Part shown: piece by piece, positions 8,150 to 23,376 of the stretch | Numbering within the stretch: the first letter of the stretch is position 1 | How the letters are laid out: the number at the start of each line of letters is the position of its first letter | Assembly (NCBI GenBank): GCA_963803145.1 | Contig: CAWDLW010000021.1 | Coordinates: forward strand, 1-23,376 | From: Methanotrichaceae archaeon | Lineage (GTDB): Archaea > Halobacteriota > Methanosarcinia > Methanotrichales > Methanotrichaceae | Reading direction: 5' to 3' | Length of the DNA stretch: 23,376 bases | Program-made: the position numbers and the translations under genes | The notes under the pieces: generated by a model | What the model saw: the letters and a program-made list of their open reading frames with translations, nothing else | What the model was told of the DNA's origin: nothing | The model's database searches: none

Positions 8150-8431
8150 TCACCAGGCACCAGACTCTATCATGCTAAGGTTCTTAAACACTTCTTCTGC
8201 AAGCTCACAGGAAAGCGTTTGCTGCTCGCAAATTTTTAGCACGCGATGGATTTCGTCTCGCTCTGCGGATGCTGTGGATTGGGCGACGAACAGCTCGGCG
8301 GCTTCATAGCCTGTCTCAAGAAGAGCATTTCTTACGTCTGCCAGCAGGTCCTCATCAAGGTGGATATTTGTGACGCCGATCTTCTCAATCGCTTCACCCA
8401 TTCGCTCCCTGCTCAAATCCATCTTTTCCAA
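8150..8431 (-). CDS. Small helical hypothetical protein, paralog 1 of a three-copy family
   Basis: About 34/80 ungapped identities to 21538..21828. The GTG at 8440 is part of a GGAGGTGA RBS, so the start is likely TTG 8431 (MEKMDL...). Confidence 0.85.
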   Translation of the reverse strand: MEKMDLSRERMGEAIEKIGVTNIHLDEDLLADVRNALLETGYEAAELFVAQSTASAERDEIHRVLKICEQQTLSCELAEEVFKNLSMIESGAW

Positions 8432-8536
8432 TTCTATCACCTCCTGTTTTAATTTTAATACTTAATAAGGATGTCTTAATAAAAAGATTTTTTGCTATGT
8501 CGTTCATATATTTCATGAATGCCAATAGCATAACGC

Positions 8537-8597: not shown

Positions 8598-9419
8598 ATG
8601 GCAGAAGTCCTTGAGCTCACAGAGGAGAGGCATGAAGAAAAGGCCCAAGCCGCCCCGCCCAGGGCGATGTGGTCAGGCAGCCTCAGGATGGGGCTGGTAA
8701 ATATTCCCGTCAATGCTATATCCATAACAAAGGATACGCATATCAGATTACGCATGGTTCATCGGAGCTGTAAGACTCCCATATCATTCAAGCGCTTTTG
8801 CCAGGAAGGCGAGGAGGTCCCTCTGAAGGATATCGTCTACGGTTATCCCCTAGATAAAAAGAATTACGTTATCCTGGAGAAAAAGGAGATAAATGCCGCG
8901 AAGCCGGAATCCAAGGACACTATAGATCTGGATAGGTTCGTCAACTTCTTTCAAATAGATCCTCACTACTTCGAGAAAACATACCTCCTTATGCCGAACA
9001 GATCAGAGGAGGCTTACGCCCTTCTCAGGGAAATCATGGAGAAGACGGGAAAGGCAGCCATCGGGAGGATGACCCTCTCCACTAGAGAACATATTGTTCT
9101 GGTACACTATTATCAGGGGGCCATTGTTGCCACAATCCTAAGATATTCAGATGAGCTTGTCGATCCCCAGACATTTGAGCAGCTGAAAAACTTGCCCAAG
9201 CCTGATGAACAGGAGCTGAAGCTTGCCGAGGAGATAGTGGACGGGCTCAGTGGTGAGCTGAACATGAGCGCCTATAAGGACGAATACAACGAGAGAATTC
9301 AGGACCTGGTCAGATCCAAAATGGGCAACAAGGTTGCGGCCGTTGGGAAGAAGAAGGAAAAGCCTGCTGCCAAGAGCCTTATGGAAGCTTTGAGGATTAC
9401 AGCAGAGTCGCTCAAGTGA
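8598..9419 (+). CDS. ku: Non-homologous end-joining protein Ku
   Basis: RAMWSGSLRMGLVNIPV, IVYGY, YFEKTYLL.P, AY.LLRE.ME.TGK.AIGR, ATILRYSDE, YKDEY, SLMEALRIT: canonical prokaryotic Ku motifs. Confidence 0.97.
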   Translation: MAEVLELTEERHEEKAQAAPPRAMWSGSLRMGLVNIPVNAISITKDTHIRLRMVHRSCKTPISFKRFCQEGEEVPLKDIVYGYPLDKKNYVILEKKEINAAKPESKDTIDLDRFVNFFQIDPHYFEKTYLLMPNRSEEAYALLREIMEKTGKAAIGRMTLSTREHIVLVHYYQGAIVATILRYSDELVDPQTFEQLKNLPKPDEQELKLAEEIVDGLSGELNMSAYKDEYNERIQDLVRSKMGNKVAAVGKKKEKPAAKSLMEALRITAESLK

Positions 9420-10408
9420 TAGCGATGCATGGTAGCCGAAGCAGCACTCCTAATCCGGATGCACCTATCAAACCTATGCTTGCAGTCCTCGGCAAGCCAT
9501 TCTCCTCTAAGGACTGGATATTCGAGCCGAAGATAGACGGCACTCGATGCATAGCCCATATCCAGAAAAGCATCGTGCTGCAGAACCGAAGGCTAACAAA
9601 TATCGCTTACCGCTATCCTGAGATTGTGGATGCCCTGTCGAATTCAGCATCCGGCTGTATCTTTGATGGGGAGATCGCTGTCTTCTCAGACGGCAAGCCG
9701 GACTTCGCTGCTCTGGCCGATAGGGAGCATCAGACCCAGAGGCTCAGAATTGAGTATCTATCAAAAGCTACACCGGCCAGCTATGTGGTTTTCGACATCC
9801 TCTATTCTAAAGGGGAGAATGTGATGGCCAGGCCGCTTCACGAGAGAAAGGCGATCTTGAAGGAGACGCTGCAGGAGAGCGATGGCGTAACCCTGGCCGA
9901 CTATTTTTCGGAGAAAGGCGAGGACTATTTTCAGGCGGCGCTGAAGTTGGGCATTGAAGGTGTAATGGCCAAGAGACTCGACTCCACATATCAGCCCGGA
10001 GTCCGCCATCCTGACTGGATGAAGATCAAGAAGCGTTTTGAGTTCGATCTGGTTGTAGGAGGCTATATCCAGGGCAAAGGCCGTCGAGGGCCTTACTTTG
10101 GCGGATTGCTTCTGGGAGCTTATGATTCCGGCAAATCAGGCAAGCTGATCTACGTGGGAAGAGTGGGCTCAGGCTTCTCCGATAGAGAGCTGCAAGAAAT
10201 GATAGGGGATTTTGAACCTGCAACTGTTATTCCATTCGCTAGTCCGCCCGATACTCCTGGGATCATATGGCTGATACCGAACATTGTCGTGCAGGTAGCT
10301 GCCTTGGAAGTTACGGAGAATGGCAGCCTCAGAGCTCCGGTGTTCCTACGGAGAAGGCTTGATAAGGACCCTCTTGAGTGCTCTATAGATCAATTTTTCA
10401 ATAGATAG
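9416..10408 (+). CDS. ligD: ATP-dependent DNA ligase, LigD ligase domain only
   Basis: PMLA, motif I EPKIDGTR, FDGEI, VVFDIL, EGVMAKR, WMKIK, VGRVGSGF, LRAPVF. GTGA overlap with the ku stop. Confidence 0.93.
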   Translation: MIAMHGSRSSTPNPDAPIKPMLAVLGKPFSSKDWIFEPKIDGTRCIAHIQKSIVLQNRRLTNIAYRYPEIVDALSNSASGCIFDGEIAVFSDGKPDFAALADREHQTQRLRIEYLSKATPASYVVFDILYSKGENVMARPLHERKAILKETLQESDGVTLADYFSEKGEDYFQAALKLGIEGVMAKRLDSTYQPGVRHPDWMKIKKRFEFDLVVGGYIQGKGRRGPYFGGLLLGAYDSGKSGKLIYVGRVGSGFSDRELQEMIGDFEPATVIPFASPPDTPGIIWLIPNIVVQVAALEVTENGSLRAPVFLRRRLDKDPLECSIDQFFNR

Positions 10409-10657: not shown

Positions 10658-13063
10658 ATGGCAGTCAAAACATGTGTGATCTTGCTGATCACTATCGGTC
10701 TGCTCGTAGGACCATCTCTGGCAGACTCCTCTTTCAAGCCTACCAATGTGCTGAATAGCATTGAATCGAACAACACTCAAATTAATACCTCGGCAATCGA
10801 TAACGAATCGGTTCGAGCCGAAATGCTGAACCTTCCTCTCAGTTTCATAGAGAACCGAGGGCAGACTTCCAACGATGTAAAGTTCATGGTCAAGACATCG
10901 AGCGAGACAATATATTTCGCGCCTTCAAATGTGCTATTTGCCTTGTCCTCGAAGAACAATGCATCAATAGTCAGAATGAGCTTTGAAGGCGCAAACCCCG
11001 GCCAATTAGCCGGTGAAGGACTCCTTCCAGGTACAGCGAACTTCTTCATCGGCAATAACTCATCGAAATGGATCACGGATATTCCTACTTACGGCTCTGT
11101 CAAGTACGAAAGCCTTTATCCAGGGGTCGATCTGGTCTTCAAAGGCACCGAAGGAAACCTGAAGCATGTGCTGCTGCTGAAGCCAGGCGTGGACCCGACT
11201 AAAATCGTTCTGGCATATAGCGGCCAGGATAGCCTGAACCTTGACAAAAATGGATCGATCCTGATAAAGACTGCAGCTGGCGACCTCACAGACTCTGCGC
11301 CATTCTGCTACCAGGATGTCAATGGGAGCAGGATGATCGTTGAGGGGAAGTATCGAAGAATTGACGACAAAAAGATAGGGTTTGAGATCAATAATTATAA
11401 CAAGAGCCTGCCTCTTGTGATAGATCCCTTGCTTAGATATTCCACATATCTGGGTGGTGCCGAAGACGACAAAGGCAACGGCATAGCAGTAGACGGCTAT
11501 GGTAATGCTTATGTTACAGGAAGCACATTTTCTTCCGACTTCCCGATTAAAAATGCATACCAGAGCAATAATGGGGGAAACTTTGACGCTTTTATCACAA
11601 AACTAAGCCATGGCGGGGCGAGCCTGATCTACTCTACCTATCTGGGGGGTGGCAAAGACGACTACGGCATGGGCATAGCTGTAGACCGCAGTAATAGCGC
11701 TTATGTTACGGGAACAACGAATTCAACCGACTTTCCAACCGAAAAACCATTCCAGGCCGCGAATGCGGGAGGTAACGATACTATTGTAGTCAAGTTAAGC
11801 CCTACAGGGAATAAACTGGTCTACTCCACTTATCTGGGGGGTGCCAAAGACGACGAAGGCTGGGGCATAGCTGTAAGCAACGGCAACAACGCTTATGTTA
11901 CAGGACGGACGAATTCAACCGACTTTCCGACTAAAAATGCATATCAGGCCGCGAATGCAGGAGAAAACGATACCTTTGTCACTAAGCTGGGTCCTGGCGG
12001 GATGAGCCTGATCTACTCCACTTATCTAGGCGGTAGCGATGATGACGGCGGTACAGGCATAGCTTTAGATCGCAGCGATAATGCTTATGTTACAGGAGAG
12101 ACTGGTTCTACCAACTTCCCGACTAGAAATGCATACCAGAAAAAGAATGCAGGGGGTCTCGACGCCTTTGTCGCCAAGCTGAACTCTGCAGGGAAGACCC
12201 TATTCTACTCCACATATCTTGGCGGCAGCGAACTCGATGACGGCATGGGCATAGCTGTAGATCGCAGCTATAACGTTTATGTTACAGGATGGACGTATTC
12301 GGACAACTTCCCGACCGAAAATCCACTCCAGGCCGCAAATGCAGGACATGATGACGCTTTTGTAACCAAGCTGAACCCTACAGGGAGAAAGCTGGTGTAT
12401 TCCACATATCTTGGCGGCAGCGAATACGACGAAGGTCAAAGAATAGCTGTAGACCACAGCGATAACACTTATGTTGCAGGGGCCACAAGTTCGACCGACT
12501 TCCGGACCAAAAATGCGTACCAGAAAACCTATGGTGGAGGGTGCGACGACGCTTTTGTAGCTAAATTGAGCCCTGCAGGGAATAACCTGGTCTACTCCAC
12601 TTATCTGGGCGGTAACGGATTCGACTGGGGGAGTGACGTAGCTGTAGACGGCAGCGACGACGTTTATGTTACGGGATGCACATTTTCTACCAACTTCCCA
12701 ACCGGAAATGCATACCAGGACAGGAATGCAGGGGGCAACGACGCCTTCATAACAGACTTTACAAAAGCGCCTCCGGATACGCCATCCAAACCCTCCGGAC
12801 CTGTTTCAGATAAGACTGGATTTTTCTACAGGTATTCCACATCAGCTACAGATCCCGATGGATACCCAATCAAATATACCTTCGATTGGGGAGATGGCAC
12901 AAAAACGACAACACGTCTGTTCAACTCTGGAACAGAGGCAACTGTAGCTCATAGATGGACCAAAGTGGGAACATTCCGGGTTGCAGCCATGGCTACAGAT
13001 AGCAAAGGTGCAACTTCGGGATATTCAAGTGCATTGGAGGTTGATATATCCAGCCGCAGGTGA
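10658..13063 (+). CDS. Cell-surface SBBP beta-propeller repeat protein with C-terminal PKD domain
   Basis: Signal peptide; LSFIENRGQ N-terminal domain; seven YSTYLGG..DD.G.GIAVD...AYVTG.T.S..FP repeats; YTFDWGDG PKD motif; GGAGGG RBS at 10648-10653. Confidence 0.93.
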   Translation: MAVKTCVILLITIGLLVGPSLADSSFKPTNVLNSIESNNTQINTSAIDNESVRAEMLNLPLSFIENRGQTSNDVKFMVKTSSETIYFAPSNVLFALSSKNNASIVRMSFEGANPGQLAGEGLLPGTANFFIGNNSSKWITDIPTYGSVKYESLYPGVDLVFKGTEGNLKHVLLLKPGVDPTKIVLAYSGQDSLNLDKNGSILIKTAAGDLTDSAPFCYQDVNGSRMIVEGKYRRIDDKKIGFEINNYNKSLPLVIDPLLRYSTYLGGAEDDKGNGIAVDGYGNAYVTGSTFSSDFPIKNAYQSNNGGNFDAFITKLSHGGASLIYSTYLGGGKDDYGMGIAVDRSNSAYVTGTTNSTDFPTEKPFQAANAGGNDTIVVKLSPTGNKLVYSTYLGGAKDDEGWGIAVSNGNNAYVTGRTNSTDFPTKNAYQAANAGENDTFVTKLGPGGMSLIYSTYLGGSDDDGGTGIALDRSDNAYVTGETGSTNFPTRNAYQKKNAGGLDAFVAKLNSAGKTLFYSTYLGGSELDDGMGIAVDRSYNVYVTGWTYSDNFPTENPLQAANAGHDDAFVTKLNPTGRKLVYSTYLGGSEYDEGQRIAVDHSDNTYVAGATSSTDFRTKNAYQKTYGGGCDDAFVAKLSPAGNNLVYSTYLGGNGFDWGSDVAVDGSDDVYVTGCTFSTNFPTGNAYQDRNAGGNDAFITDFTKAPPDTPSKPSGPVSDKTGFFYRYSTSATDPDGYPIKYTFDWGDGTKTTTRLFNSGTEATVAHRWTKVGTFRVAAMATDSKGATSGYSSALEVDISSRR
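11438..12760 (+). repeat. Seven intragenic tandem repeats of 192 bp (64 aa)
   Basis: YSTYLGG units start at 11438, 11630, 11822, 12014, 12206, 12398 and 12593 (period 192, last 195). Confidence 0.95.
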
Positions 13064-18004: not shown

Positions 18005-18622
18005 TTAAGGTGTATTAAGTTTTGGCGCGTTTGAATCATTTAGGCTATAGTATAATCTCCAAGGCTGTCTTGGCCGCGAGTCGTATTTCGCCAGATAATC
18101 TAGTGGATCGGTTGTTATGTAACCGGTCTGGTACATATCGCCGTATACAATTAGTCCAATTGAGTTTGGCAATGGCTTTTTGTTCGGGTAAAATCCACCA
18201 TCCCCATCTATGAATATCCATGCTTCTTTGTATCTTGGGTTATCGACTGCAACCCACATGTGTCCTATGGGATCACCGTTCAAAGATCGGTTGTCTGGAC
18301 CCCAATCGGTGATGCATACTGCCGTATATCCATCGCGTTCTAATAGCAGCATTATGTAAATCGAGGTGTCGGTACATGAGAAGTTGCCTGTTACGTATGG
18401 GTGCGACCAATGGTAGCTGTCTAAGATGTGTTGGATATCGTTTTTGAATTGATCATCGTATGCAGGTTTTAGTGTTACAAGTTTAAAGAGGTCTGGTTGA
18501 GCATTAGCTTGTAGTAAAATCGTTCCCGCTGTGACTAATCCCATTACGAGTAAAAATAGCAGGAAACGGGTAAGATTATCTTTTTTTGATGTAGTTCTAC
18601 TTCCGTGGTCAGCATCCATCAA
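18005..18622 (-). CDS. Membrane-anchored/secreted transglutaminase-like (papain-fold) protein
   Basis: N-terminal hydrophobic helix; putative triad FSCTDTS (Cys), GHMWVAV (His), WIFIDG (Asp). Confidence 0.65.
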   Translation of the reverse strand: MMDADHGSRTTSKKDNLTRFLLFLLVMGLVTAGTILLQANAQPDLFKLVTLKPAYDDQFKNDIQHILDSYHWSHPYVTGNFSCTDTSIYIMLLLERDGYTAVCITDWGPDNRSLNGDPIGHMWVAVDNPRYKEAWIFIDGDGGFYPNKKPLPNSIGLIVYGDMYQTGYITTDPLDYLAKYDSRPRQPWRLYYSLNDSNAPKLNTP

Positions 18623-18702
18623 TGACTTGCCTCTAACAATGCGATCATTTTTCGCTTCATCTTTTCACTTTTTCGGTCTACCAGGTTGCATTCATGACTT
18701 AG

Positions 18703-18918
18703 TCATTCGTCACACATGTAAAAGACAAATATCGCCTCCTCCCATGCATTCTCCATCAGCTTCCCATAGTATTCATCATCGAACCAAGAAGCCACTCATG
18801 CTAAATCCACCTTCCGCCTGTCGGCATCCTTTACTACATAGCTTATTTCCATTCCTGGAGCCGGAGCGATCCCTTATCGGCTGTAAGCCTAAACTGTTGA
18901 AGCATCTGAGCATCTGCT
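18703..18918 (-). pseudogene. C-terminal remnant of a family-B DNA polymerase (PolB2-like)
   Basis: Frame not in the ORF track: SRCSDASTV*AYSR*GIAPAPGMEISYVVKDADRRKVDLA*VASWFDDEYYGKLMENAWEEAIFVF, with the G..I.YVV...D..YY PolB thumb signature and three in-frame stops. Confidence 0.7.
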
Positions 18919-19325
18919 TAACGTTCCTTTGGCATCTCAATAGAGATCGCTGCTTGAGCAGGAGGAGGCCATAAAATAGGATACCATCCATACCATCCAT
19001 GTTTTTCTATACCCTACTTTATACTCTATATCACTTTTCTATCTTAATTCCATTTCTGGACATAATATAGGGGTAGGCAAACCCCTGGATGGGGTGGATG
19101 GTACCGGAGTTCCTGGGTATTTTGCCATCGCTGAAGCAGACGATCTAAATAGAAAGTTAGCAGCGATAGGATAATTCTTCCTCGCCTCCCACAACCCCAA
19201 TCCCCACCTCCCATCTGCCTGCCTTCTCCAGCTCCAATAATTCCCTACCTGCTTGGAAGATCTCAAGATGTAGCTCATTTTAGGCTGGTGGCAGAAGGAT
19301 TTATTGAGTCCTTAAAACCTGAGGA

Positions 19326-19385
19326 GCCTATGTCTCTGCTCCACAGCTCAACACAGCCCTTGTAGTAACAATCGAAGATCCACAT
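19326..19385 (-). pseudogene. N-terminal remnant (about 20 codons) of the same family-B DNA polymerase
   Basis: MWIFDCYYKGCVELWSRDIG after a GAGG RBS matches, from recall, the N-terminus of Methanomicrobia type-B polymerases; same strand and correct order relative to the C-terminal remnant. Confidence 0.6.
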
Positions 19386-19554
19386 ATTTTCCTCATATCC
19401 CATCCCAATCCAATCTCCCCTAAGAGGTCTGGCAGGGCTGAGGGCAAAAATGCCAGAAGTGTGTAGGGGCGAATGTAACCTCATGGGTTCTCTGGTTGCC
19501 GAATACTGATTAGCTAGGCATACTTCTCCAGGACTTCTCCCAACTCTCCTATCC

Positions 19555-19734
19555 TTACAGGCTTTGTATATCATCTTCAGCGAGAAGTAGCTCCATTAAT
19601 CGTTTGCCAACGATACTCATTGTTTTATTGATACCTGTTTCCTCTGCTAGAAACTCGAAGCTAATCTTCTCATTACCGTCTCTTGACCTGAATACACGCT
19701 CAGCAGGATCTATTGGAAAAGTGATATCCGAAAT
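19555..19734 (-). CDS. Small hypothetical protein, possible ATT start
   Basis: GAGGTG RBS 5 nt before an in-frame ATT, with an AT-rich TATA-like region upstream; the ORF-track start at 19806 would overlap this promoter-like region. Confidence 0.35.
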   Translation of the reverse strand: MSDITFPIDPAERVFRSRDGNEKISFEFLAEETGINKTMSIVGKRLMELLLAEDDIQSL

Positions 19735-19858
19735 GATAACACCTCTTATTGCATGGGTTTTATCATAATTAATTATATAGCATGGCAGAGAACTTGGAGA
19801 CTGCACGGGAGCCGTTCAGGTCAATATTTTATAAGTTGGGAAAGGATAAGACTTTGTC

Positions 19859-21042: not shown

Positions 21043-21537
21043 GATTATTTTCTCCCAGATTCACACTTAGAAGATTATTTTGAATTTGTAGTATTTTGCA
21101 CCTATATAGAGATCTCTGCTTGAGCGAGAGGAGAAGTACCCATAAATTAAGGTACCATCCACCCCATCCAGCGATCCCCTCCTTCTGGTTAGACAAATGC
21201 GTCCGCAATTTATGTTAACCAGTGTTTTTTTGGTTAGATTTCCCCCATTTCAGAGTTCATTTTCAAGCATTCTTTATATAATCGAGATGAGATCAGAGCA
21301 CATTTACCTTTCGAAATCAGGTAAAGAAATGAAGGCTTATCATACGAGTAATAATAAAGAAAATATCAATTTCTGTAGTCTCCAAGTTTTTGATTTTGCA
21401 TACAAAATATAAACAATCAGCTGATAAAATAATACTATATTTTATGATGATGGCACGAAATAGTATACAACATTATCTAATTATGTTAAAATTAATTCGG
21501 TTTATAAAGTTGGCGGTTGCAGCTAAAAACTTGGAAA

Positions 21538-21828
21538 CTAAGACCATTTTCCTAATTCAATTCTGTTCAAATTATCAAGGATCCGGGCTGCAGCCACTGG
21601 GCTAAGATCATATTTCTTGCATATAGCCAAAACGCGCAGCAGTTCTGTATTTTCATCAGTTCCTATGAGCTGTGCGACATAAGCTTCAGCTCCCTCATAG
21701 CCATCCTTAAGTAGAGCATTCTTGGTTTCTGCTATTACAGGTGCCGTAATGCAGGTGTTGGCTAGCCCGATGTCTTTGATAGCCTTATCTAGATTTGCCA
21801 AATTCTTTTCCGTGAACAATTCTTCCAT
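21538..21828 (-). CDS. Small helical hypothetical protein, paralog 2
   Basis: About 63/91 identical to 22688..22963 and about 34/80 to 8150..8431; GGAG RBS upstream. Confidence 0.9.
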   Translation of the reverse strand: MEELFTEKNLANLDKAIKDIGLANTCITAPVIAETKNALLKDGYEGAEAYVAQLIGTDENTELLRVLAICKKYDLSPVAAARILDNLNRIELGKWS

Positions 21829-22018
21829 CCCTTATCTCCATTTAACCGCGCTCTTCTGGTTGTGTTTTATTTACCTTTAGATGTTGTCCAAAATTGCTTA
21901 TGCCGGTATTTGGTTGCTGGCAAAGCTTGTTCATCTTTTATGACTAAATCGAACAGATAAATATAGTGCATTGATTATCTAAATCATTTAATGGCTTAAA
22001 ATGCAACTAATCCCATAT

Positions 22019-22535
22019 TTAAATATCATTATAAAGAGCAATAGAGATTGCCGAGACAGGAATTGCTGATTTCTTGATCCATACCGGTATGCCATGGGCA
22101 TTTGCAGTCAGTTTGTAGCCCCTGCGTCGCAAAACAGTCCTGACTGAATCACGATCGACTCCGATTCTCTTGGCGATCCGTCCTATTTCAGACTATCATA
22201 AAACTGTATTTGTCTAGATTCGTACTTTGAAATGTACTCCTCAAGTAAGGCGATCTTTTTTATAAGATTCACATGTTCGCCCTCCCGGCTCTTCCAGATC
22301 TTTCGGCCATGGCCGTTGTTGGTTAATTGGTAGCCAAGTCTCTTCAGTTCCGTTCGTATACAATCAGGGGATATATCGAAATGGTCTGCTATTATTTGCA
22401 CTTCTCGACGATCATAAATACGAGATCTGAATTGGTTGCTGTTCGAGAGATAAATTCCAAGGCCTATTGTGGCTTTATAGGTCTTTTGTGTTTCGAATGC
22501 TCCGTTCCTAACCAAAATTTTTGGCAGCTACTCAT
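22019..22535 (-). pseudogene. Tandem winged-HTH-like two-domain protein with two 1-nt frameshifts (about 22517 and 22193); may be intact in vivo
   Basis: ORF 22183..22515 holds domain 1 (IYDRREVQIIADHFDISPDCIRTELKRLGYQLTNNGHGRKIWK). Frame 22192..22019 holds a homologous domain 2 (SEIGRIAKRIGVDRDSVRTVLRRRGYKLTANAHGIPVWIK). ATG 22535 with a GGGAGAG RBS is 1 nt out of frame across an A5T4 run. Confidence 0.75.
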
Positions 22536-22687
22536 ACTCTCTCCCTACATGCATGAAACTATAATGTGATTATGGGCGATAAGGCATAAAATGCCAACAT
22601 AGTAAGCCCCTCCCCGGAGCATACGCTAAGAAATCTGCGGGTGCGAATACCTTTCCGACGTCGTCCCCACTCTTAATCACTAATTTA

Positions 22688-22963
22688 CTATTCTCCTGAT
22701 TCAATTATATTCAAATTATCAAGGATCTGAGCTGTAGTCTCTAACCCAAGATTATATTTCTTGCATATAGCCAACACGCGTAGCAGTTCTGTATTTTCGT
22801 CAGTTCCTATGAGCTGTGCGACATAAGCTTCAGCTACATCATAGCCATTTTCAAGCAGGACATTCTTGGTTTCCGCGATTACGGGATCTGCTATACAGGT
22901 GTTGGCTTGGCTAATAGCCTTTAAAGCCATATCTAAATTATTCAATTTCATATCTGTCAGCAT
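22688..22963 (-). CDS. Small helical hypothetical protein, paralog 3
   Basis: Shares an identical 27-aa block with paralog 2; ends TAG-TAA where the other paralogs have a terminal Trp. Confidence 0.9.
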   Translation of the reverse strand: MLTDMKLNNLDMALKAISQANTCIADPVIAETKNVLLENGYDVAEAYVAQLIGTDENTELLRVLAICKKYNLGLETTAQILDNLNIIESGE

Positions 22964-23113
22964 TTTTCCCCTACTCTCCCTATAATATCACAATCAACTT
23001 GCTATGCCAGTCACCTTTAGTTATTATCCGATTTTTCTCGATAATACCCAGTTTATTTCCTATTTAATGAACGCTAATATATCTGTTATATATGGTCTTT
23101 ATGACACGTATTG

Positions 23114-23189
23114 TAAAATGTGGAACAAAACGAAAAATGTGGCGCAAAGTGGAAAATATAGCACAAAATGAGAAATGTGATACAAGTAG
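23114..23189. repeat. Four degenerate 19-bp tandem repeats (iteron/operator-like)
   Basis: TAAAATGTGGAACAAAACG / AAAAATGTGGCGCAAAGTG / GAAAATATAGCACAAAATG / AGAAATGTGATACAAGTAG in exact 19-bp register. Confidence 0.75.
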
Positions 23190-23376
23190 TCCGGTAAATA
23201 GCGGATGATGCTAAATATTATATTCATGACTTATTAAACATTGCCAGTGAGAAGTTTCGTACCGCAAAGAACGCTTCTAGGATAGAGCAGATACGGAGTA
23301 GCCAACTACTATTTGAATATAATAAGGAATCAGGTATACAAATATTTGAAATGACTCCTTAATACGTTTCTATTAA

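Follow-up and report, generated by a model that had tools for sequence, protein, structure and literature searches.

A three-gene cassette of a tandem winged-helix protein and small acidic Cas11f-like paralogs behind a multi-copy, repeat-bearing upstream element in a Methanotrichaceae archaeon

Introduction

Several described systems share features with the locus presented here. For Ptr2 of Methanocaldococcus, tandem sites upstream of the BRE/TATA region (the B recognition element and TATA box) have reportedly been described. Anti-CRISPR/Aca (anti-CRISPR-associated) operons combine one or more genes for small acidic proteins with a helix-turn-helix (HTH)-type gene behind a repeat-bearing promoter. 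In ScpB, ESCRT-II and the RNA polymerase III subunits Rpc62 and Rpc5, a long helix connects one winged-helix domain to the next. The stretch of DNA analysed here, which we call the window, is the entire 23,376-nucleotide (nt) contig C21 in a 4.13-Mb assembly (G000; 51 contigs, 99.3% complete) of a Methanotrichaceae archaeon. At the very end of this contig lies a cassette of three genes which, in order along the minus strand, encode a small acidic protein (paralog 2), a tandem winged-helix protein and a second small acidic protein (paralog 3). We show that this cassette is real and kept by selection in one genus, and that it is not a general two-family system.

The original prediction, made from this DNA alone, took the three genes, a 19-bp repeat array and a foldable spacer for a self-contained, autoregulated module with an RNA component. 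That picture must be given up, as the spacer is unstructured and the array is shared with other operons. We consider it moderately probable that the locus is instead a genus-specific three-gene regulatory operon within a shared, probably stress-related, regulon, and that insertions, among them a miniature inverted-repeat transposable element (MITE), came later.

Results

Conservation of the cassette

Paralog 2 is encoded at window positions 22688..22963 (91 amino acids, aa), the tandem winged-helix gene at 21996..22535 and paralog 3 at 21538..21828 (96 aa), all on the minus strand. The map of open reading frames (ORFs) bears out the predicted co-orientation of all parts on that strand, and the proposal of a compact cassette that matches no named system likewise holds, with no Pfam or NCBIfam family reached at threshold. 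Two other genomes of the same genus (G001 and G002) were available for comparison. Contig C125 of G001 carries the same cassette in the same gene order at 88-90% nucleotide identity, with paralog 2 at 356-631, an intact winged-helix gene of 180 aa at 655-1197 and paralog 3 at 1270-1554. The ratio of nonsynonymous to synonymous substitution rates (dN/dS) between the two genomes is 0.14 for paralog 2 and 0.22 for paralog 3; the winged-helix gene, taken in two halves, gives 0.17 and 0.20. Because all of these ratios are low, the sequences indicate that every gene of the cassette is under purifying selection.

A wider linkage of the two families, which the original prediction had proposed to look for by synteny, is found only in part: the order is kept in G001, whereas elsewhere the families are not linked. 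Within the present genome the paralog family occupies 8 places and winged-helix-like genes occupy 9, and the only place common to both is on C21. Among 41 genomes, the sole other joint locus is the G001 ortholog. A loose case is found in genome G018, where a winged-helix gene and a paralog-family member fused to a ribbon-helix-helix (RHH) domain are separated by 3 kb that hold other genes. Relatives of the winged-helix protein are encoded at 21 metagenome loci, several of them short, and at none of these did the available flanks (up to 2.5 kb) carry a paralog or the upstream element described below. As a positive control, the same search recovered all three paralogs of the window.

Integrity of the winged-helix gene

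The window does not hold the winged-helix gene as one open frame. When the intact ortholog was used in a tblastn search, the gene was found in three frames, corresponding to ortholog residues 1-11, 6-114 and 116-170, and the ORF calls give only pieces of 110 aa and 37 aa. Three 1-nt gaps interrupt it, at about 22503/4, 22192/3 and 22026/7, the third lying near the C-terminus. In public contigs an additional base is present at 22192 (4 runs), 22501 (3 runs) and 22026 (2 runs), which in each case is every run with a contig at that site. These counts come from four runs of two studies covering the region 21300-23376; the runs are metagenome contigs that may include the sample of origin, so they are not fully independent. 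Since the extra bases are present in all covering runs and the dN/dS of the two halves is 0.17 and 0.20, we conclude that the gene is intact in the population and that the breaks in the assembly are most likely errors or a minority variant. The window also differs from the public contigs by single bases in non-coding DNA (21462, 21907 and 23324). In total, at least six single-base insertions are seen within 2 kb in the public contigs relative to the window (21462, 21907, 22026, 22192, 22501 and 23324). Single-base gaps break genes in this assembly, and frameshifts elsewhere in it warrant caution.

A multi-copy upstream element

The 19-bp direct-repeat array lies at 23115..23179 on the minus strand, with core 14-mers at 23154-23167, 23135-23148 and 23116-23129. 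Tandem Repeats Finder (TRF) reports a period of 19 with 3.4 copies, 71% matches and a score of 74, and a repeat search finds three 19-nt copies at 74-79% identity. The array had been read as part of an autoregulated unit. It is indeed real, has a period of 19 and is conserved; it is not a private operator of the cassette, because it is part of a multi-copy element that is found in front of unrelated operons as well. Three further places in the genome are similar to the region upstream of paralog 2, and an nhmmer profile of this element of about 250 nt recovers exactly 4 copies in the genome (E 4e-60 to 2e-71; next match E 0.04), namely C21:23037-23281 (the window copy, minus strand), C15:59358-59608, C15:63648-63898 and C12:230160-230389. 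G001 has 4 copies, and G002 has copies at approximately 9-10 places. The element is always located upstream of genes and always in one orientation.

The repeat core is TTTGTGCTATATTT, present in 1-6 units per element copy. Taken alone, the array is weak in the window, where the 14-nt core has 8 matches at up to three mismatches against 3.46 expected, and the units of the window array are the most degenerate of the element family. A pattern of two units at 19-bp spacing has 6, 3 and 16 matches, respectively, in the genomes of the genus; of 58 other genomes of the family, 3 have a single match, and the reversed control pattern has no match in 61 genomes. Across the element copies the 5-nt linkers vary, whereas the 14-nt core and the strict 19-bp spacing do not, and the number of units ranges from 1 up to 6 near-perfect ones. 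The largest array, of six near-identical units, is at G002:C2:85667-86013 (L023:1669-1959); at this locus a gene for an insertion sequence (IS)-type transposase (481 aa) lies behind a pair formed by an 86-aa protein and a paralog.

Directly behind the window array is an A/T-rich box (23085..23107, minus strand); its stretches TGTCATAAA and CATATAT show no difference among the 5 element copies aligned. We infer that this box is the BRE/TATA region, which would give the element a promoter role. Between G000 and G001, identity is 88.6% from the box to the start codon, 82% in the array and 79% in the far part of the element; for comparison, the shared intergenic DNA from the winged-helix gene to paralog 3 is 75-83% identical and dS (the synonymous rate) is 0.13-0.34.

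The genes found behind the element vary. Besides the present cassette in G000 and G001, they comprise an 85-100-aa protein followed by a paralog (C15 of G000 and two loci of G002; on C58 of G001 without the paralog), a rubrerythrin-like protein with an encapsulin (Linocin_M18) on C12 of G000, a 50-aa protein with an M50-CBS protease in G000 and G002, and two universal stress proteins (Usp) in G002. The 85-aa protein upstream of the C15 paralog was suspected from its sequence pattern to have an AbrB-like C-terminus, which no library supported. In all three genomes of the genus, element copies are adjoined by a gene for a protein of 523-527 aa with two winged-helix domains followed by HisKA, HATPase and receiver domains (G000:C15:57761-59332 on the plus strand, L041:2954-4537 and L038:2353 onward). 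The left part of the element holds a small divergent ORF whose frame stays open in two copies, over 49 aa at C15:63596-63745 and over approximately 40 aa, with a TTG start, on C12. As a gene it was rejected, as judged by eye the window copy lacks a start codon and the G001 copy contains a stop codon, and we take it for a remnant of a divergent promoter or gene.

The element copies could also be read as a dispersed, duplicated promoter fragment that contains a slippage-prone tandem repeat and has no regulator of its own, in which case the likeness between loci would reflect DNA copying and not a regulon. The range of copy number from 1 to 6 and the six near-identical units in G002:C2 are in keeping with this, the similarity extends over about 250 nt and takes in the part resembling a divergent promoter or small ORF remnant, and the element is almost confined to one genus. 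Against it stand the core 14-mer and 19-bp spacing, which are constant where the linkers are not, the position of the element always upstream of genes and in one orientation, and the gene of a DNA-binding hybrid kinase beside element copies in all three genomes. We therefore regard this explanation as unlikely.

Added blocks and the spacer

Compared with the G001 ortholog, the window has three extra blocks, of 129 nt, 96 nt and approximately 175 nt. The largest (21368..21542, no strand assigned) is a MITE behind paralog 3. It has 16-nt terminal inverted repeats at 21376-21391 and 21525-21540 that match at 94%, is present in 3 copies in the genome at 96-98% identity and does not occur at the G001 ortholog. 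In one contig of run X1, position 21367 is followed directly by 21543, revealing a MITE-free (empty) site in the population. The stop codon of paralog 3 is formed by the first three bases of the MITE end. In its non-coding content, terminal inverted repeats, three near-identical copies and empty allele, this 175-nt block is like other MITEs; it differs from them in that no parent transposon was identified.

The 129-nt block (22544..22672, minus strand) is the stretch that had been put forward as a foldable, structured RNA. The stretch exists, and run X2 has a contig that spans it, so the block is real and not an assembly artefact. The RNA reading failed, however, on folding, on conservation and on family membership. 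The spacer at 22535-22690 (156 nt) gives a folding z of 0.18, and positions 22540-22668 (129 nt) give a z of +1.57; of 200 shuffles, 108 and 194, respectively, were as stable as the real sequence or more so. No Rfam family matches the spacer. Conservation of the spacer, which had been named as a point on which the proposed module would stand or fall, was not found: the 129-nt block is not kept at the G001 locus, and a search of 60 further genomes from the family brought up no relative, the best match reaching E 0.025 over 34 nt. Nor does it have a second copy in the genome, the only other match being 35 nt within C43. It was considered as a mobile element and rejected, with no second copy and no terminal repeats seen.

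The 96-nt block (21870..21965, minus strand) lies between the winged-helix gene and paralog 3, is absent from the ortholog, is unique in the genome and is covered by a contig of run X1. It bears a loose likeness to a repeat unit plus a TATA-like box, a reading that was dropped because the element profile has no match there. The best explanation of the 129-nt and 96-nt blocks is that they are lineage-specific insertions without signs of function.

These blocks, together with the frame breaks, raise the question of whether the cassette is decaying, with the winged-helix gene a true pseudogene in this genome, the unit eroded by the 129-nt, 96-nt and MITE insertions, and nothing working as a unit any longer. 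Three frame breaks and three extra blocks relative to the ortholog, array units that are the most degenerate of their family and a position at a contig end are all in keeping with decay. On the other side, every public contig at the break sites has the extra base (4, 3 and 2 runs), dN/dS is 0.17-0.20 for both halves of the winged-helix gene, both paralogs are intact, and the single-base differences in non-coding DNA at 21462, 21907 and 23324 suggest an assembly prone to indels. On this evidence decay appears quite unlikely.

The tandem winged-helix protein

An AlphaFold2 (AF2) model of the intact ortholog (predicted local distance difference test score, pLDDT, 78) has two strand-helix-helix-hairpin domains, at residues 39-82 and 111-155. 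The order along the chain is a long helix, the first domain, a second long helix, the second domain and a hydrophobic C-terminal helix, the last of which is missing in many relatives. The Foldseek matches of the model are proteins of the tandem winged-helix type, first ESCRT-II and ScpB (E values between 7.5e-5 and 6e-4; probability 0.97-1.0) and then Rpc62 and Rpc5. The predicted tandem winged-HTH thus stands as a two-domain fold in the AF2 and Foldseek results for the ortholog, and fails as a single open frame in the window. The protein is basic (isoelectric point, pI, 9.7) and has 35 relatives, none of them usefully named. Pfam gave sub-threshold matches only (HTH_28, E 0.012; Sigma70_r4, E 2.6e-4 to 0.16), the best PHROGs match was a 'transcriptional regulator, D5-like' at E 1.3e-4, and no NCBIfam family was reached at threshold. 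A search of PDB sequences with the profiles of both the paralog and the winged-helix family returned nothing better than E 0.18. In all likelihood the protein serves as a DNA-binding factor. The nearby ORFs that were scanned include no kleisin/SMC or ESCRT genes.

Two further winged-helix paralogs, at G000:C25:156687-157253 and C41:781-1347, are identical to each other, intact and 189 aa long, and are 73% identical to the cassette protein over the first domain. The C25 copy adjoins a transposase fragment, and C41 is a contig of 14 kb.

The small acidic paralogs and Cas11

Paralogs 2 and 3 are acidic (pI 4.25 and 4.76) and helical, and they share 69% amino acid identity and 80% nucleotide identity over 284 nt. 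The predicted kinship of these small proteins is confirmed, and a third copy was found in the window at 8150-8440 (minus strand; 96 aa, 40% identical to paralog 3), which matches the Cas11f profile at E 2e-4. This copy stands alone between a nitrite/sulfite-reductase-type gene and the Ku gene. The genome holds 8 members of the family, most of them adjoining ordinary cellular genes. The family is narrow, with 48 cluster representatives among 1.8 billion proteins; it is present in 16 of 24 other genomes of the same taxonomic family and in none of 16 genomes searched from two neighbouring families. Across genera, copies recur that are alike in length and degree of identity. An N-terminal RHH-like domain (ParD E 3e-4 to 7.5e-4, below the Pfam cut-off) is present in two 148-aa members and in some members from metagenomes.

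The sole family match of these proteins is to the PADLOC profile of Cas11f, the small subunit of type III-F CRISPR systems; paralog 3 matches it at E 0.019, paralog 2 at E 0.0015 and a fused form of 148 aa at E 4.7e-6. Of 27 aligned members, 12 match this profile at E <= 0.01 (best 6.9e-6 and 4.7e-6), and no other PADLOC family matches any member. NCBIfam and PHROGs gave weak, unspecific matches only, and the best score for paralog 3 in the ESM Atlas (0.77) gave no usable lead. For a direct comparison we used five true Cas11f proteins from genomes of the same phylum (E 3e-16 to 3e-32), a sixth match having been dropped as an RNA polymerase subunit. In hhalign the paralog family aligned with these five over 79 columns with a P value of 1.8e-4 and a probability of 48.5%. 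The score of 28.6 was not reached by any of 200 column shuffles, which went no higher than 20.9, and reversing the alignment gave 12.2. The AF2 model of the paralog (pLDDT 87.7) is a five-helix bundle. In an exhaustive VIA-align search its best match was SSO6904 (Z 6.4), and chains of Cmr5/Csm2, the small subunits of other type III complexes, scored Z 3.8-6.2 (Cmr5 chains at 5.9, 5.6 and 5.4 and Csm2 at 3.8-4.3), all of which are below the level that the tool states for chance matches among helical proteins. On balance, the paralog family is probably homologous to Cas11.

Homology would not make these proteins part of a CRISPR effector. Because no RAMP, Cmr2 or Csm1 genes turned up in the genome and the paralogs are acidic where Cas11f is basic, the paralogs are not a working type III small subunit in this genome. 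Searches for RAMP, Cmr2 and Csm1 found no match anywhere in the genome, which is 99.3% complete, and so no type III effector genes; two Cas1 genes, which serve CRISPR adaptation, are present. The protein scan of the window found no cas genes. True Cas11f domains fused to the C-terminus of a protein of approximately 250 aa were observed in two genomes of the same class (L035:1483-2550 and L036:1492-2514, both minus strand).

The likeness to Cas11 bears on the analogy with anti-CRISPR and HTH-regulator cassettes that the original prediction drew. In such an operon, the acidic Cas11-like paralogs would be decoys of a CRISPR small subunit, with the winged-helix protein as the Aca-like repressor of the paralogs' promoter. 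Small acidic Cas11f-like proteins, an HTH-type gene in the same operon, repeats in the promoter and two Cas1 genes in the genome fit this arrangement, and the resemblance of the paralogs to Cas11 is an unexpected point in its favour. The genomic context speaks against it. Type III effector genes (RAMP, Cmr2 and Csm1) were not found in this near-complete assembly. The paralogs occupy several chromosomal places beside ordinary cellular genes and recur across genera, PHROGs gave weak matches only, and the window has no mobile-element genes apart from the MITE. The winged-helix gene, moreover, is unlinked to paralogs in 21 of 21 metagenome loci, and the repeats are direct and common to Usp, encapsulin and protease operons. 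We judge an anti-CRISPR role to be very unlikely.

Other features of the window

The rest of the window encodes ordinary cellular proteins, including a sulfate permease, an FMN reductase, a RibD_C protein, Ku with an ATP-dependent ligase, and an SBBP/PKD surface protein. Scans of the window found no transfer RNA and no Rfam family, and no mobile-element genes; the MITE is the only mobile feature. Ku (273 aa) is encoded with the ATP-dependent DNA ligase (330 aa) immediately behind it at 8598-10408 on the plus strand, a bacterial-type end-joining pair in an archaeon. Tandem repeats of 192 nt, in up to 5.6 copies, occur at 11603-12747 (plus strand) within the gene for the 801-aa SBBP beta-propeller/PKD protein. 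A region of approximately 1.2 kb at 18620-19850 has a strong skew of C over G on the plus strand and short overlapping ORFs without a family match, with no Rfam match; it is possibly a degraded gene.

Discussion

Methanogens of the Methanotrichaceae type are important for methane production, and genetic tools and regulatory knowledge for them are scarce. In the regulatory operon that we favour, the cassette would be driven from one copy of the element of about 250 nt, in which the 19-bp repeats upstream of the TATA-like box would serve as an upstream activating site for one shared regulator. The cassette would then be a member of a common, probably stress-related, regulon and not an autoregulated island. 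The best candidate for the regulator is the hybrid protein with two winged-HTH domains, HisKA, HATPase and receiver that is encoded beside the element. As to the products of the operon, the basic winged-helix protein would lie between two acidic proteins of Cas11 descent, and either it or other DNA-binding proteins may be modulated by these; more speculatively, the acidic paralogs would most likely act as protein partners or modulators of DNA-binding proteins. A complex prediction for residues 1-160 of the winged-helix protein with paralog 3 scored 0.00 against a mark of 0.32, which argues neither for nor against binding.

A number of points weigh against this proposal. The operon, promoter, regulon, regulator and protein-protein contact are all inferred, and few downstream genes underlie the 'stress' label. 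Element copies resemble one another over about 250 nt, which is longer than a group of binding sites would require, and they may be duplicated promoter DNA, or else a dispersed element, and have no regulator in common. The window sequence itself does carry three frame breaks, and the public contigs may come from a sister strain, in which case the winged-helix gene could be truly broken here. Judged from the alignment of the two loci, the 129-nt and 96-nt blocks may be insertions in this genome or deletions in G001. The Cas11 link is weak on each measure taken singly: Foldseek returned nothing for the paralog model at E <= 0.001, the structural Z values of 4-6.4 are below the chance level for helical bundles, and the hhalign probability to Cas11f is 48.5%. 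The charge is also opposite, with pI values of 4.25-6.32 in 27 paralog members against 8.85-10.07 in the five true Cas11f proteins.

A more far-reaching version of the proposal, in which we place little confidence, would have the paralogs as exapted type III-F Cas11 domains that moved out of the cas locus, were reversed in surface charge and multiplied in the Methanotrichaceae, both as free-standing proteins and as the C-terminal domains of RHH regulators. As anti-activators or co-factors they would now bind and modulate DNA-binding proteins, for example the winged-helix protein of the cassette, within a 19-bp-repeat regulon switched by the hybrid kinase. If the derivation from Cas11 is true, a CRISPR component would have been recruited to another role. 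The genus-specific promoter element, with its variable number of 19-bp repeats before stress-type genes and its position next to a hybrid kinase, amounts to a directly testable regulon. What appears to be new here is a narrow family of acidic paralogs that matches the Cas11f profile, lies outside any cas locus and is sometimes fused to an RHH domain. Literature searches on Cas11 and type III-F small subunits, on Cas11 homologs and anti-CRISPR, and on Methanothrix promoter repeats and universal stress proteins brought up nothing on such proteins or repeats.

The comparison with known systems shows for each part of the locus a familiar outline and a departure from it. Like archaeal upstream activating sites, the array consists of direct repeats right upstream of a conserved A/T-rich box and occurs at several promoters of one genome; it differs from them in that the 19-bp unit, its sequence and its variable copy number are specific to this genus. 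The cassette departs from anti-CRISPR/Aca operons in that its repeats are direct and shared with cellular operons, its context is chromosomal and not a mobile element, and its HTH family is not associated with small genes elsewhere. The winged-helix protein, for all its similarity in domain order to ScpB, ESCRT-II, Rpc62 and Rpc5, has no sequence relationship to them at threshold and gives low TM-scores of 0.24-0.31, and some members of its family have a hydrophobic C-terminal helix, unlike those proteins. The paralogs resemble Cas11f, Cmr5 and Csm2 in their length of approximately 90 aa and in an all-helical five-helix model; part of the family matches the Cas11f profile at E <= 0.01, the hhalign alignment extends over nearly the whole domain, and Cmr5 and Csm2 are among the best structural matches of the paralog model, at Z values below the chance level. 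Unlike Cas11f, the paralogs are not encoded with cas10, cas7 or cas5 and are acidic instead of basic, and they are present in multiple dispersed copies, some of them fused to a ribbon-helix-helix domain.

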